Positions 1 to 12,638 of a stretch of DNA of 16,519 nt are shown here, one piece after another. This DNA comes from a virus (taxonomy: Duplodnaviria; Heunggongvirae; Uroviricota; Caudoviricetes), in the IMG/VR virus record IMGVR_UViG_2579778660_000005; one strand, 5' to 3'. Position 1 is the first letter of the stretch. Each line of letters begins with the position of its first letter. The notes beneath the pieces were generated by a model. The model was not told the origin of the DNA. It did no database searches and saw nothing but the letters and a program-made list of their open reading frames with translations. The translations under genes and the position numbers were made by a program.

Positions 1-1284
1 TTACAGACTTCTGGAAGGTTGCGCAGCTCTTACAACACGCGGTTGATCTTCCGCAGCGTCTTCCAGCGCACTTAAATCACGGTCTTTCACCTCTGGCATT
101 TTCAGCGCAGAGATTAAACCAATTACTGAATATGCCATGATCATAATGGCGATCGGATACCAGGATTCCGTCATGGTGCAGAAAATCCCCGCCAGGATAG
201 GACCAAAACCGGAAGCGATAAGACCACCAATTTCTTTAGAAATAGCCATCCGGGTAAAGCGGTTTTTACAGCCGAACATTTCTGCCATGGTAATGTTTTC
301 CAGAGCAAATAATCCCAGCACCGCACAGTTATGAATCACAATCAGTGCAACCATAATGGTGCTCGGGGCATAGCTTTTATCTACAATGATAGAAAGCATT
401 GGCCATGCCAGCACAATCGCGGAGGTATTCATAATAATATACGGGATCCGGCGACCAATTTTATCGGATAACCAACCAAGGAACGGAATGGTCATAAAGC
501 CGAGAATCGAACTAATCATCAATGCATCTGTTGGAATTGCTTTGTTAAACAATAACGTCTGCACTAAATAGCCTGCAAGGAAAGTCTGAATTAACCCGGA
601 GTTACCCGCCTGACCAAAACGCAGCCCTGTTGCCAGCCAGAAGGATTTGCTCTGGAACATGCTACCAGCAGGTGCAGGTTTTGCTGTGGGTTGGTTGCTG
701 TCATTAACCTTCTCAAAGACCGGGCTTTCTTTCAGATTCATACGTAACCAGATAGCAAAGACCATCACGACAACGCTCGCCAGGAACGGTATACGCCATC
801 CCCACGCCAGCAGTTCCTCTTTACTGAGAATGAAGAACATAAAGGCCCAGATTGCCGTTGCGCTCAAGGTTCCGCAGTTAGTTCCCATAGCTACAAATGA
901 GGAGATAATTCCGCGCTTACCTTTTGGTGCATATTCCGCCAGCATCGTACCGGCACCGGAAATTTCCGCACCTGCACCCAACCCCTGAATAATACGCAGC
1001 GTCACCAGCAAGATGGGGGCAAAAACACCAATCTGTGCATAGGTCGGTAACACACCAATTAAGGTGGTACAGATCCCCATCATGGTGATGGTAATAAAGA
1101 GCACTTTTTTACGCCCTATTCTGTCGCCCATTTTGCCGAAAATAAATGCTCCGACAATACGCGCCACATAACCTGCACCGTAGGTTCCCATTGCCAAAAT
1201 TAACGCCATTGCCGTTGATGATTCAGGAAAAAATATTTCATGAAACACTAACGCTGCGCCGAGCGAATATAACTGGAAATCCAT
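1..1284 (-). CDS. ydfJ: MFS-type metabolite:H+ symporter (ProP/KgtP-like); N-terminus appears shortened
   Basis: 427-aa ORF with many hydrophobic helices and the MFS loop motif G-x-x-G-D-R-x-G-R-K-K starting near residue 50; aligns from memory with ProP starting at about ProP residue 25; an in-frame TGA lies two codons upstream of the ATG. Confidence 0.85.
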   Translation of the reverse strand: MDFQLYSLGAALVFHEIFFPESSTAMALILAMGTYGAGYVARIVGAFIFGKMGDRIGRKKVLFITITMMGICTTLIGVLPTYAQIGVFAPILLVTLRIIQGLGAGAEISGAGTMLAEYAPKGKRGIISSFVAMGTNCGTLSATAIWAFMFFILSKEELLAWGWRIPFLASVVVMVFAIWLRMNLKESPVFEKVNDSNQPTAKPAPAGSMFQSKSFWLATGLRFGQAGNSGLIQTFLAGYLVQTLLFNKAIPTDALMISSILGFMTIPFLGWLSDKIGRRIPYIIMNTSAIVLAWPMLSIIVDKSYAPSTIMVALIVIHNCAVLGLFALENITMAEMFGCKNRFTRMAISKEIGGLIASGFGPILAGIFCTMTESWYPIAIMIMAYSVIGLISALKMPEVKDRDLSALEDAAEDQPRVVRAAQPSRSL

Positions 1285-3306: not shown

Positions 3307-3882
3307 CTACGGCAGTGCTGGCCATTCAATATCCTGTGCAGTTGACGTATCAACACGGTTCAGCAATACCCGATACTTTTTCCATGCTTCCAGCAACGAG
3401 ATTTCTTCCTCCGTTGCAATTTCCAGATCTGCAGCATCCTGAAGCGGCGCAATATGCTCACTGGCTACCTGCATCAGGTTGTTTTTTGTTTCTTCCGCCT
3501 CCCGGATCCGGAACAGTTTTTCTGCTTCCGTATCCTTCACCCAGGCTGTGCCGTTCCACTTCTGAAACTCCCCTTCCGGCGATAACCAGGTAACATTTTC
3601 CGGTAACGGACCGAGTTCAGAAATAAATAACGCGTCCCCTGATGCCACGTCATAAACTGTTTTACCCCGATGGTCTTCAACAAGATGCCACGATGCCTCA
3701 TCACTGTTGAAAACAGCCACGAAGCCTGCCGGAATATCTGGCGGTGCAATATCGGTACTGTTTGCTGGCAGACCTGTATGAGGCGGAATATATGCGTCAC
3801 CTTCACCAATAAATTCATTAGTTCCGGCCAGCAGATTATAAATTTTTATGGTCTGTGGTTGTTCACTCATTCTGAATGCCAT
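3307..3882 (-). CDS. tfaQ: Tail fibre assembly protein (Tfa)
   Basis: 191 aa recalled as lambdoid Tfa; start ATG overlaps the stop of the upstream tail-fibre ORF (TAATG arrangement). Confidence 0.85.
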
Positions 3883-9444: not shown

Positions 9445-9840
9445 CTAACCTCGCATGTCAAAGCCAGATTTCTGAAAATCTCTGTAGACTTCCGGATTGT
9501 TGAAGGCCGGAAATTTGGCTTTATGAGCTGCGGACTTTATCGCTTCGCAATAGGCTTTATCACCGTTACTGGTAGATATTTTTAACGCCGTGCCATCCTG
9601 AGAGAATTCCATATGCAACCTGCATTTTTTCCCTTTCCAGTTATGCGGCTCATCAAGTTTGGCATTAATTGCAGCTCTGATTCCCCGCGCTTGCGCCCCC
9701 CATTCATCCTGATCATCCCAGCGTCCTGAACTGCAACTACCTGTAGCAGTAGTTTTGTGGCAATCTGAAGGGTGTAAAGGTGTGCATCCCGCAACAAAAC
9801 CGACCCAAAAAGTCAACATAACGATTTTCTTTAATCCCAC
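9445..9840 (-). CDS. Lipoprotein with diverged TolA domain III-like C-terminal domain (paralog 1)
   Basis: 131 aa; GTG start preceded by GGAG; signal peptide with lipobox VAGC; C-terminal part aligns with paralog 2 and with remembered TolA domain III. Confidence 0.75.
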   Translation of the reverse strand: MGLKKIVMLTFWVGFVAGCTPLHPSDCHKTTATGSCSSGRWDDQDEWGAQARGIRAAINAKLDEPHNWKGKKCRLHMEFSQDGTALKISTSNGDKAYCEAIKSAAHKAKFPAFNNPEVYRDFQKSGFDMRG

Positions 9841-9990: not shown

Positions 9991-10419
9991 TCAGGGTTTA
10001 AAATCCAGCACCCCATTTTGAAATACTTTATATACTTCCGGCGAAGGGGGGGCAGGTATATCAGCATTCTTTATCGCATTCATCGCTTCACGACATAAAT
10101 CGAGGTCTCCACTTTCTCTTTTAACCTCCAGTAGAAGGCCATTCGGGGCCATATGCATTCTCAGTGTACACTCTTTTCCTGAATACTTACTCGCATCCCC
10201 GAACTGTTTTTCGATGGCGCTCTTGATTTGATGGGCATACAGACGGATATCCTCACTAACATCAGAAGTACGTTCAGATGAACTCACATACTGTGTCTCT
10301 ATTGCTTTATCGGAGTAATATGATGTACGGTCATGATAATTTGTCGATACAGCATCAGTGCACCCGATAATAATCCCACTAATAATCAACGTAAGAATTG
10401 ATGCGCTACGAAAACCCAT
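9991..10419 (-). CDS. Lipoprotein with TolA domain III-like C-terminal domain (paralog 2)
   Basis: 142 aa; ATG preceded by GAGG; lipobox IIGC; C-terminal 86 aa (YAHQIKSAIEKQF...GKECTLRMHMAPNGLLLEVK...IPAPPSPEVYKVFQNGVLDFKP) about 60 percent identical by eye to the remembered E. coli TolA C-terminus. Confidence 0.8.
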   Translation of the reverse strand: MGFRSASILTLIISGIIIGCTDAVSTNYHDRTSYYSDKAIETQYVSSSERTSDVSEDIRLYAHQIKSAIEKQFGDASKYSGKECTLRMHMAPNGLLLEVKRESGDLDLCREAMNAIKNADIPAPPSPEVYKVFQNGVLDFKP

Positions 10420-10454: not shown

Positions 10455-10952
10455 TATACCGTTGTTTTGGACGCTCAAACAGCGAATCAGATCAAATAAA
10501 ACGCACATTTGTTAACATTTACACAAAGTCTGCGTGGGATATTCTGAAAGAATATCCATAATGTGGAGAGAATCTATTGAAGTGCATGGTGCCGGGTGCC
10601 TCCCGGTGAATTCAGTACCAGCACCTGAATCCGCGATTATCCCATATACCTACTCGCTGATTGCCCCTCCGCACAGGGGGATTCACCATGCCAGTTTCTT
10701 TTAACAAACTCCCCGCAAACCAGAGAACAGTCAACCGCCTGAATTGTGAAGTATTTAAAAATTTCTCCCGCTAACTGATACCCGGCTAACAGTCTGGCGT
10801 TTTCTTTTTCAGCAACGGGAAAGCAACAACCACCACACCCGCCACCAGCACACCGTCAGCCAGCACTGACATTATCCGGCTGCTGCAATGCCATTCACAA
10901 AAACAGTAAGCAATCACTTTTTACCGTAACAGGTGATAATCCAGATATGTAT

Positions 10953-11306: not shown

Positions 11307-11416
11307 TACTTAACAGAACTTTTATTTTTGACAAACATATAATATTTTCAACAATATCCTGAGCCAGGTATATTCCAGTATAAGGCTCTGCCGGAAGGAA
11401 TCTGGAAGAATGAATA

Positions 11417-11493
11417 TGGCGCGCTGTACTGGATTCGAACCAGTGACCGATTGCTTAGAAGGCAATTGCTCTGTCCGGCTGAGCTAACAACGC
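11417..11493 (-). tRNA. argO: tRNA-Arg (anticodon UCU)
   Basis: 77-nt cloverleaf folded by hand: acceptor GCGUUGU/ACAGCGC, D-stem GCUC/GAGC, anticodon stem AUUGC/GCAAU with loop CUUCUAA, T-arm ACUGG-UUCGAAU-CCAGU, 3' CCA. Confidence 0.9.
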
Positions 11494-11597
11494 TGAATAC
11501 CGATAATGGACCGCCATCGGGGACCCGCCCCCCCCCGCACCAACAACCCTGTTATCGTGTCGTCTGCTCTTCCTGATAAGCTCATGGCGGTTTGTGA

Positions 11598-11673
11598 TGG
11601 TGGCCCTTGCTGGATTTGAACCAGCGACCTGGCGATTATGAGTCGCTCGCTCTCACCACTGAGCTAAAGGACC
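11598..11673 (-). tRNA. ileZ: tRNA with CAU anticodon (Ile2-like or Met)
   Basis: 76-nt cloverleaf: acceptor GGUCCUU/AAGGGCC, D-stem GCUC/GAGC, anticodon loop CUCAUAA, T-arm GCUGG-UUCAAAU-CCAGC, 3' CCA; one mismatch at the top of the anticodon stem. Confidence 0.8.
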
Positions 11674-11712
11674 GGGAGCAGAATAATAACGGTCCGTAAT
11701 TAATTCCGCAAT

Positions 11713-11736
11713 AAAAAACCCGCTCGGTGGCGGGTT
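11713..11736 (-). terminator. Rho-independent terminator downstream of Q (tR'-like)
   Basis: Minus-strand AACCCGC-CACCGA-GCGGGTT stem-loop followed by a U-tract. Confidence 0.6.
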
Positions 11737-11783: not shown

Positions 11784-11811
11784 AATTTACCACAGATTCC
11801 GGAAAAATCAA
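11784..11811 (-). promoter_or_regulatory. Late promoter pR'-like (-35 TTGATT, 16-nt spacer, -10 TAAATT)
   Basis: Lies immediately after the Q stop codon; remembered lambda pR' is TTGACT/TAAATT in the same position relative to Q. Confidence 0.5.
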
Positions 11812-11816
11812 CCTTG

Positions 11817-12638
11817 TTACCTAGTTACCTTTTTTAACTGCCGCTCAGCCCATGCTTCTTCAATATCAAACCGGGTCACCAGCGCATCATAGAATTTCTT
11901 AACTGTTTTTTCCCATGACGCGCGTGTTATCTGGTTTGTCACCTCGCATATAGCATTAAATGCCTCCGTTGATGGTAGTCTTTCATAGCCCCGACCACCA
12001 CAACGCTGGCAGTCTCTGATAACAGGCATACCACGTTTTACCGACTCTTCACGGTGAATGGCGACACCACGCCCACGGCAATCCTTACAGGCGGTGGAAA
12101 CCTCACCCTTTCCGCCACACTCCGGACAGGCAACTTTTACCACCTCCCTGACTTTTTTCCATTCTTCCCAGTAAGACGGATACACACCTTTCGTACACTT
12201 TGCCCATACCGGCGGCTTACCATCCGGATACTGGACCTTGTTTGTAAAAACTACGCTTTCAATAAATTTTTCCCCATAGCAACAAGGGCACTGCTTTTTA
12301 CTCGCTGCGCTGCGGGCATAATCCTCAAAAGCGTACGAAGCCATAATGCGCATCACTAACGGTTTTATTTCTGCCGGAAGTTTTCTCAACGCCGCCACAC
12401 GATCGCACCGACTGAGTGCATAATCTGCCAGTAATTCTGTTGCCCGCGCCCTGTCATTCATACTGATGCCCATTTTCCCCAGGAACGCAGAAAATCCCAT
12501 CTCAGCCCGATTCTGTGTCATGCCCTGCGCGGCCATCACATCAGTGATACTCAGCGCATCTTTTGACGTTGAGGCCGATGCATCGGTCAGGCCAGGGGAT
12601 TTTGGGGAGTAGTATTTCGGTAAATCTTCCAGTTTCAT
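11817..12638 (-). CDS. quuQ: Late-gene antitermination protein Q (lambda Q family)
   Basis: 273 aa; shares with remembered lambda Q the blocks SPKSP...TDVMAA.GM, CxxC-GxG zinc motifs (CKDCRGRG, CQRCGGRGY) and TVK..YDALV. Confidence 0.9.
   Translation of the reverse strand: MKLEDLPKYYSPKSPGLTDASASTSKDALSITDVMAAQGMTQNRAEMGFSAFLGKMGISMNDRARATELLADYALSRCDRVAALRKLPAEIKPLVMRIMASYAFEDYARSAASKKQCPCCYGEKFIESVVFTNKVQYPDGKPPVWAKCTKGVYPSYWEEWKKVREVVKVACPECGGKGEVSTACKDCRGRGVAIHREESVKRGMPVIRDCQRCGGRGYERLPSTEAFNAICEVTNQITRASWEKTVKKFYDALVTRFDIEEAWAERQLKKVTR

Follow-up and report, generated by a model that had tools for sequence, protein, structure and literature searches.

Two intact tRNA genes, a probable argN relic and a variable G/C tract in the late region of a Qin-like cryptic prophage

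Results

The stretch analysed here is the viral record IMGVR_UViG_2579778660_000005 of IMG/VR (16,519 nucleotides (nt) in full, called the window throughout), and the element in question is a short cluster of transfer RNA (tRNA) genes, in which two intact genes of the ileZ and argO types flank a gap of 104 nt (11494..11597) containing a run of nine C. tRNA genes were called with ARAGORN on the whole window and with the Rfam tRNA model (RF00005, gathering score 29). ARAGORN called exactly two, both on the minus strand, placing their anticodons cat at position 34 and tct at position 35, and both genes score above the Rfam gathering score as bacterial tRNAs (Table 1). A preliminary description, made from the letters of the sequence, had named the same two tRNAs (CAU and Arg-UCU) with the same outer ends, and both programs recover them. 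It had also reported the 104-bp gap with its nine C, which can be read directly; to this we add the strand, since both tRNAs lie on the minus strand and their transcript therefore carries the tract as G9.

The label given by ARAGORN to the CAU tRNA is Met, the usual default for any CAU anticodon. This gene is identical to the ileZ of the Shiga toxin (Stx) phage Stx2a_WGPS8 (AP012540.1) at 75/76 positions (99%), and it matches K-12 ileX at 67/76 positions (88%), versus 70% for the elongator gene metT. Its homologues are labelled tRNA-Ile by the Prokaryotic Genome Annotation Pipeline (PGAP). The sequence is overall of the tRNA-Ile2 (ileX/ileY) type, and the acceptor stem GGUCCUU/AAGGGCC includes the C4-G69 and C5-G68 pairs, which are reported determinants for TilS. 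Initiator tRNA-fMet is distinguished by a C1xA72 mismatch and by three consecutive G-C pairs at the bottom of the anticodon stem; the G1-C72 pair and the anticodon stem AGCGA/UCGCC of the CAU gene rule out this identity. From its sequence, the gene is an ileX-like tRNA-Ile2, which would read AUA after lysidine modification by the TilS of the host.

The second gene is identical to the argO of Stx2a_WGPS8 at 76/77 positions (99%) and shows 74% identity to K-12 argU. It presents the features of the argO/argU type, namely the anticodon tct, the D loop AGCCGGACA with GGA at 18-20 and G as the discriminator preceding the CCA. The identity elements of arginyl-tRNA synthetase include A20 of the D loop and a purine at the discriminator position. 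This tRNA presumably reads AGA, and AGG weakly. The two genes have the same anticodons as K-12 ileX (CAU) and argU (UCU), and presumably the same decoding roles, but unlike these they are extra copies borne by a prophage and clustered behind a phage terminator instead of standing at the chromosomal loci.

In megablast searches, the whole interval, gap included, aligned to Stx phages as one piece (query 103..414, approximately 87% identity, E=4e-94), and the phages matched across that span carry three tRNAs there. Alignment with intact argN divides the gap into a linker, an 84-nt relic and a trailer (Table 1). The segments matching argN are the linker (TCACATA in Stx phages), the 5′ half of the acceptor stem (CCGCCAT), the D arm, the T stem, the 3′ half of the acceptor stem (ATGGCGG), the discriminator U, the CCA and the trailer. 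Relic and argN are identical at 61/87 aligned columns, with near-identity outside the anticodon arm and the T loop. The anticodon arm of argN, CCAGC-CTTCGAA-GCTGG, is represented in the window by GACGACACGATAACAGGGTTGTTGG, a hairpin without the 7-nt anticodon loop, and the T arm reads C-G9-CGGGT-CCCCG versus CGGGG-TTCGAGT-CCTCG in intact argN. The relic consequently has no UCG anticodon stem-loop, and a G run followed by CGGGT stands in its T loop instead of TTCGAGT.

ARAGORN made no call for a third tRNA in the window, and the Rfam search of 11480..11610 gave no match at E<=10, which rules out a third functional tRNA across the tract. More generally, ARAGORN called a tRNA in 0/121 copies of the allele with the replaced arm and a tRNA-Arg(tcg) in 84/91 argN-like copies, a few of the others having different anticodons or no call. 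The preliminary description had seen no third tRNA fold in the spacer. This holds for the predictors; nevertheless, the spacer aligns with argN, and the minimum-energy fold of the relic is a cloverleaf whose acceptor stem has 7 bp and whose D stem has 4 bp, with a hairpin in the centre and an arm like the T arm, but no anticodon loop. The folding energy does not differ significantly from that of shuffled sequences (z=-0.92). Similarly, its statement that only two members of the cluster are present is right for intact tRNAs, the third existing, on the evidence of the alignment, as an argN pseudogene. As neither Rfam nor ARAGORN gives a tRNA call there, we file the 104-nt interval as a tRNA-derived pseudogene and not as a tRNA, and its alignment indicates that it is argN, the middle member of ileZ-argN-argO.

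The diversity of the middle slot was surveyed in IMG/VR by a scan anchored on the 3′ end of ileZ and the 5′ end of argO, and hence unbiased for what lies between them. Among the 120 loci retrieved, 89 have an argN-like anticodon arm and 31 the replaced arm. Intermediate alleles exist: in one locus (L066) the anticodon arm is intact and a TT->GG change in the T loop gives G6, in another (L035) the arm is replaced and the T arm perfect, and the allele of phage phiP27 combines the replaced arm with a near-intact T arm. Both arm types are therefore found with both T-arm types, which points to recombination inside the slot or to parallel decay. Within the argN-type group, 54/101 columns of the middle slot are segregating versus 4/59 of ileZ, and the middle slot is the weakly constrained, most variable member of the trio. 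Nucleotide diversity (pi) is 0.0087 in relic alleles versus 0.0047 in ileZ, although these alleles are too young for the values to inform on constraint. The relic acceptor stem is mutated in 2 loci (ATGGCGG->ATGACGG), and the replaced arm shows the polymorphisms ACGA->ACCA and ->GCGA without compensation. In addition, ARAGORN reads an altered anticodon in the middle slot of three loci, UUU in two whose D stem is damaged and UCU in the third.

The relic is widespread in E. coli. A query of 98 nt covering it, with a match required over >=80% of its length, was found in 1,783 of 5,426 finished E. coli genomes, and 57 of the 59 sampled rows covering most of the query have no annotation under the match. 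The 501-bp interval query matched in 3,080 of the same genomes; the cluster thus belongs to the lambdoid prophages of E. coli at large and is not limited to Stx phages. As a separate observation, argO is truncated immediately after the anticodon loop in five IMG/VR prophages and fused to an unrelated sequence (…CCTTCTAAGCAGCTGTGGTTGCACTCC…) at a recurrent junction (Table 1).

The homopolymer lies in the 5′ half of the T stem and the T loop of the relic, and it is the sole C or G run of 9 nt in the window. In dinucleotide shuffles of the window, such runs occurred 0.08 times on average, with at least one in 10 of 200 shuffles. Tract length follows the nucleotide at tRNA position 8. The alleles that keep U8 (CCATTAGC) have short tracts (G4 in eight, G5 in 91 and G6 in 15), and all alleles of the U8->G lineage (CCATGAGC), to which the window belongs, have long ones: of 17 loci, five have G9, three G10, two G11 and three G12, and G14, G16, G19 and G20 are also found. 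Thirteen U8->G loci were compared base by base with the window, and the inner relic was identical in 13/13, with <=1 mismatch in 230 nt of flanks. The same G9 was found in four independent IMG/VR assemblies and G10 to G20 in finished genomes, the G19 and G20 tracts coming from finished RefSeq chromosomes. The preliminary description had considered the run slippage-prone and had proposed comparing its length between isolates; the range of G9 to G20 within the lineage of the window bears this out. The variation in length between near-identical flanks fits neutral slippage, the neutrality being what we infer.

Codon use was counted in 13 prophage open reading frames (ORFs) of the window. ATA accounts for 20% of the Ile codons (11.7 per 1000), and AGA and AGG occur at 6.9 and 4.5 per 1000. 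These rates are about threefold the averages of the E. coli genome in codon tables, and ATA, AGA and AGG are the codons decoded by the two intact tRNAs.

The genes around the cluster are those of a lambdoid late region. As the preliminary description had placed it, the cluster stands at the head of this region, directly after a Q-type late antiterminator gene of the PF03589 family and a terminator-like hairpin, and before the lysis genes, the position of lambdoid late-region tRNA clusters. RusA and DUF968 genes come before the Q-type gene, whose counterparts in homologous prophages are annotated as antitermination protein. The hairpin, between the Q gene and the first tRNA, has 7 pairs (5 G-C), a 6-nt loop and a T-rich tail. 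Two promoter-like sites were noted by eye on the same strand (Table 1): a late-promoter-like (pR′-like) site, which fits the consensus at 8/12 positions, and a motif close to ileZ, TTGCGG-17 nt-TATTAT, with a -35 hexamer matching at 3/6. Both fall below the cut-off of the promoter scan, which reports neither. Lineages that differ further upstream still have the tRNA-proximal motif, which could possibly be a dedicated, Q-independent promoter of the tRNAs.

The scan does report promoter-like sites downstream of argO, on both strands. One of them, TTGACA-16 nt-AACAAT (10/12 positions, plus strand), points back into the tRNA cluster. The scan gave 3 sites versus 1.2 expected, which may be chance. 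In E. coli C6 (NZ_CP195945.1; locus L224, 822..1280), a prophage that is otherwise near-identical and carries a G11 tract has an IS200C element inserted close to the terminator hairpin, in the space separating the Q gene from ileZ.

Downstream of the cluster follow a DUF3927-like ORF, the STnc100 small RNA (sRNA), two adjacent TolA-like ORFs and then holin, lysozyme and Rz homologues. STnc100, between the DUF3927-like ORF and the TolA-like gene, occupies the late-region 'moron' slot just past the tRNAs. The ORFs with the TolA domain take the position that stx has in Stx phages, and they may encode TolA mimics of prophage origin.

The best matches to the whole window place it in a Qin-like cryptic prophage in ydfJ, without stx genes. 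A truncated ydfJ, encoding a major facilitator superfamily (MFS) transporter, marks the Qin-type insertion site at the left end of the window. The structural-gene region of the prophage seems heavily deleted, and the best genome matches cover 61-71% of the window. In addition, Rfam gives a full-length match to the 'sRNA' family IS009 inside a tail-fibre-assembly-like ORF, and this family may correspond to a fragment of prophage coding sequence.

Table 1. Positions of the features discussed. Coordinates refer to the window, except where an L number designates another locus.
Feature	Position	Strand	Basis
Q-type late antiterminator gene, 273 amino acids (aa)	11817..12638	minus	Pfam PF03589 'Antitermination protein Q', E=2.6e-55
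Late-promoter-like (pR′-like) site, TTGATT (11811..11806), 16 nt, TGgTAAATT (-10 hexamer 11789..11784)	11784..11811	minus	by eye
Terminator-like hairpin AACCCGCCACCGAGCGGGTT followed by T run (tR′-like)	11717..11736	minus	terminator scan
TTGCGG-17 nt-TATTAT motif, ending 9 nt before the mature 5′ end of ileZ	11683..11711	minus	by eye
tRNA-CAU, ileZ-type tRNA-Ile2, CCA encoded	11598..11673	minus	ARAGORN; Rfam 69.4 bits
Linker TCACAAA, 7 nt, between ileZ and the relic	11591..11597	minus	alignments to intact argN
Putative argN relic (tRNA-Arg UCG pseudogene), 84 nt	11507..11590	minus	alignment to intact argN
Homopolymer, C9 on the plus strand, G9 in the transcript	11528..11536		sequence and alignment
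33-aa ORF across the homopolymer	11484..11585	minus
Trailer TTATCGGTATTCA, 13 nt, between relic and argO	11494..11506	minus	alignments to intact argN
tRNA-Arg-UCU, argO type, CCA encoded	11417..11493	minus	ARAGORN; Rfam 68.0 bits
Promoter-like sites downstream of argO	11328..11374; 11351..11324	plus; minus	promoter scan
STnc100 sRNA	10530..10720	minus	Rfam 114 bits, gathering score 47
Two adjacent ORFs with TolA C-terminal domain	9991..10419; 9445..9840	minus	PF06519, E=2.4e-23; 1.3e-14
Tail-fibre-assembly-like ORF	3307..3882	minus
IS009 match, full length	3341..3539	minus	Rfam 220.9 bits, gathering score 117
Truncated ydfJ	1..1284	minus
argN alleles with changed anticodon	L012 1938..1956; L051 995..1013; L024 2165..2184		ARAGORN
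argO truncation junctions	L015 8255..8282; L057 4856..4883; L058 3876..3903; L076 5991..6018; L126 5629..5656

Discussion

Our results suggest that this locus is, very probably, the late-region tRNA cluster of a lambdoid, Qin-like cryptic prophage, with two intact tRNAs, a decayed argN and a G tract that varies neutrally. What we observed directly comprises the tRNA calls, the homology between relic and argN, the allele series, the variation in tract length, the gene context and the codon counts. The cluster lies just downstream of the Q gene and the terminator, and for this reason ileZ and argO would be expected to be made mainly when RNA polymerase modified by Q reads through the terminator, although they may also have a weak promoter of their own. 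They would probably serve to help decode codons that E. coli uses rarely and prophage genes use often. In this scenario, argN would have lost its anticodon arm and become a pseudogene, and the TT->GG change in the T loop would have merged with the GGGG of the T stem, seeding the G run. With no function to protect it, the run would drift by replication slippage, with most lineages keeping 4-6 G; the lineage of the window would have passed approximately 9 G, whereupon the tract became hypervariable (9-20 G).

The comparison with annotated phages is consistent with this interpretation. The ileZ-argN-argO cluster was reportedly first described for phage 933W. Our comparisons with Stx2a_WGPS8 and phiP27 rest on their GenBank annotations. 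Stx2a_WGPS8 has the same gene order and orientation downstream of a Q gene at the head of the late region, and besides its near-identical ileZ and argO, its linker and trailer are homologous to those of the window. In contrast, its argN is intact (called tRNA-Arg tcg by ARAGORN) where that of the window is decayed, and stx2AB follows the cluster in the place taken here by the DUF3927-like ORF, the STnc100 sRNA and the TolA-like genes. The 273-aa, PF03589-type Q gene of the window is a further difference. The preliminary description had regarded such tRNAs as a hallmark of Stx phages of the ileZ/argN/argO kind. The relationship to this cluster is supported by the 99% identity of both tRNAs to those of an Stx phage; the hallmark itself does not hold, as the prophage of the window is Qin-like and without stx, and the interval is matched in 3,080/5,426 genomes.

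The Stx2e phage phiP27 (AJ298298) resembles the window in its middle slot, with two annotated tRNAs (ileZ and argO), a gap of approximately 101 nt and the same replaced anticodon arm. Unlike the window, it has no homopolymer, because its relic T arm is nearly canonical (GGGG-TTCGAGT-CCTGG). Its neighbours also differ, with a DNA methylase gene upstream and stx2e downstream. An allele identical to that of phiP27 (81 nt) in the STEC383 Stx2e prophage (locus L225, 256..336) is annotated 'tRNA-OTHER' by PGAP; the same allele is unannotated in the GenBank record of phiP27. In the library consulted, full-text searches on ileZ/argN/argO, on phage tRNAs with rare codons and on ileX with stx returned nothing relevant, and a paper on the pR′ region makes no mention of tRNAs.

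Nevertheless, several points weigh against the interpretation of a cluster with a neutrally decaying argN and must be considered. The anticodon arm looks replaced, rather than mutated step by step, and an exact 22-mer scan for a donor of the replaced arm among 185,579 species representatives matched E. coli alone. The relic retains a perfect 7-bp acceptor stem and the CCA, which a fully neutral pseudogene would not need, although the alleles are too young to tell; the relic is also very common, being present in 1,783 finished genomes. Moreover, CGG, which argN could have read, is frequent in the 13 ORFs (13 per 1000), and the loss of argN is therefore not explained by low demand. Some of the tract-length differences of +/-1 could be homopolymer sequencing errors. 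On the side of expression, the dependence on Q, the lysidine step and the benefit to translation are what we infer, and because the prophage is cryptic, the tRNAs may seldom be induced.

In another explanation, the relic is kept as an RNA-processing module: the minihelix of acceptor and T arm would be cut by RNase P or other maturation enzymes, separating ileZ from argO and aiding the 3′ maturation of ileZ. RNase P is known to separate some polycistronic tRNA transcripts of E. coli, and what the relic has lost are the parts with which a tRNA decodes, whereas it retains the acceptor stem (7 bp), the D arm, the discriminator and the CCA intact. In addition, the relic starts 7 nt past the CCA of ileZ and occurs in about a third of finished E. 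coli genomes. However, the acceptor stem does mutate (in the 2 loci mentioned above), the identity of the T loop is gone, the fold is no better than that of shuffles, and no compensatory changes were seen, the youth of the alleles accounting for their low diversity. We therefore consider this role unlikely. An extension of it, in which the relic is a processing or structural module of an ileZ-relic-argO transcript and its G tract (9-20 G) a heritable rheostat on maturation or read-through, seems quite improbable; if it were true, the tract would set the dose of the downstream AGA-reading tRNA.

Poly-G/C tracts that drive phase variation are known in Neisseria, Haemophilus and Campylobacter, and the run in the window resembles them in being a G/C run of >=9 nt that differs in length between close strains, as slipped-strand mispairing predicts. 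It could be a contingency switch of a 33-aa ORF or of argO expression. The tract is a hypervariable simple repeat, with 9 to 20 G amid near-identical sequence among the 17 loci, and the ORF, which starts with ATG, is the only one spanning it. In contrast to contingency tracts, the run lies in a dead tRNA gene, outside any promoter spacer and outside any frame led by a ribosome-binding site, with no evident read-out. No Shine-Dalgarno-like sequence precedes the ATG, which was created by the U8->G change and is present in the long-tract lineage only. The tract lengths are spread over all three reading frames without preference, and none of the genomes inspected has a homologous protein annotated at this place. 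The missing ribosome-binding site, the occurrence in one lineage and the use of all frames rule out a phase-variable 33-aa protein, and we regard a contingency switch of either kind as very unlikely.

It is also scarcely credible that the allele with the replaced arm yields a working tRNA-like RNA of non-canonical form, such as a decoy for a tRNA-targeting nuclease or modification enzyme. The replaced arm is common to phiP27 and thousands of prophages, and the phiP27-type form, a tRNA of undetermined type according to PGAP, folds better than most shuffles (z=-1.94, with 7/200 folding as well). Against this, the T loop of the window allele is destroyed and its length is unconstrained between 5 and 20 G, the arm polymorphisms are uncompensated, and there is no anticodon loop with which to mimic the target of a nuclease. 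Finally, an ordinary unrelated spacer with a C9 arising by chance or as a sequencing artefact, which was the implicit reading of the preliminary description and which the silence of tRNA predictors and the 10/200 shuffles with a 9-nt run might suggest, is refuted by the alignments to argN: the homology is base for base in the same slot, with matching linker and trailer, intermediate alleles exist, one of them (the phiP27 type) annotated tRNA-OTHER by PGAP, and the tract recurs as G9 in four independent IMG/VR assemblies and as G10-G20 in finished genomes.

Conclusion

The arrangement described here is essentially known and ordinary, a known kind of element in decay, and its significance is small beyond annotation housekeeping. 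In prophages from which argN seems to be missing, its wreck is still there; about a third of finished E. coli genomes contain it without annotation, and its phiP27-type form is occasionally labelled tRNA-OTHER. Discrepancies in assembly and in length can be expected at the G/C run. At the same time, the locus illustrates neatly, on a small scale, how a point change in a dead gene (TT->GG in the T loop, beside GGGG) seeds a homopolymer that becomes hypervariable past approximately 9 bases. Of the three phage tRNAs, those that read AUA and AGA are conserved, while the one that reads CGA/CGG is dispensable.

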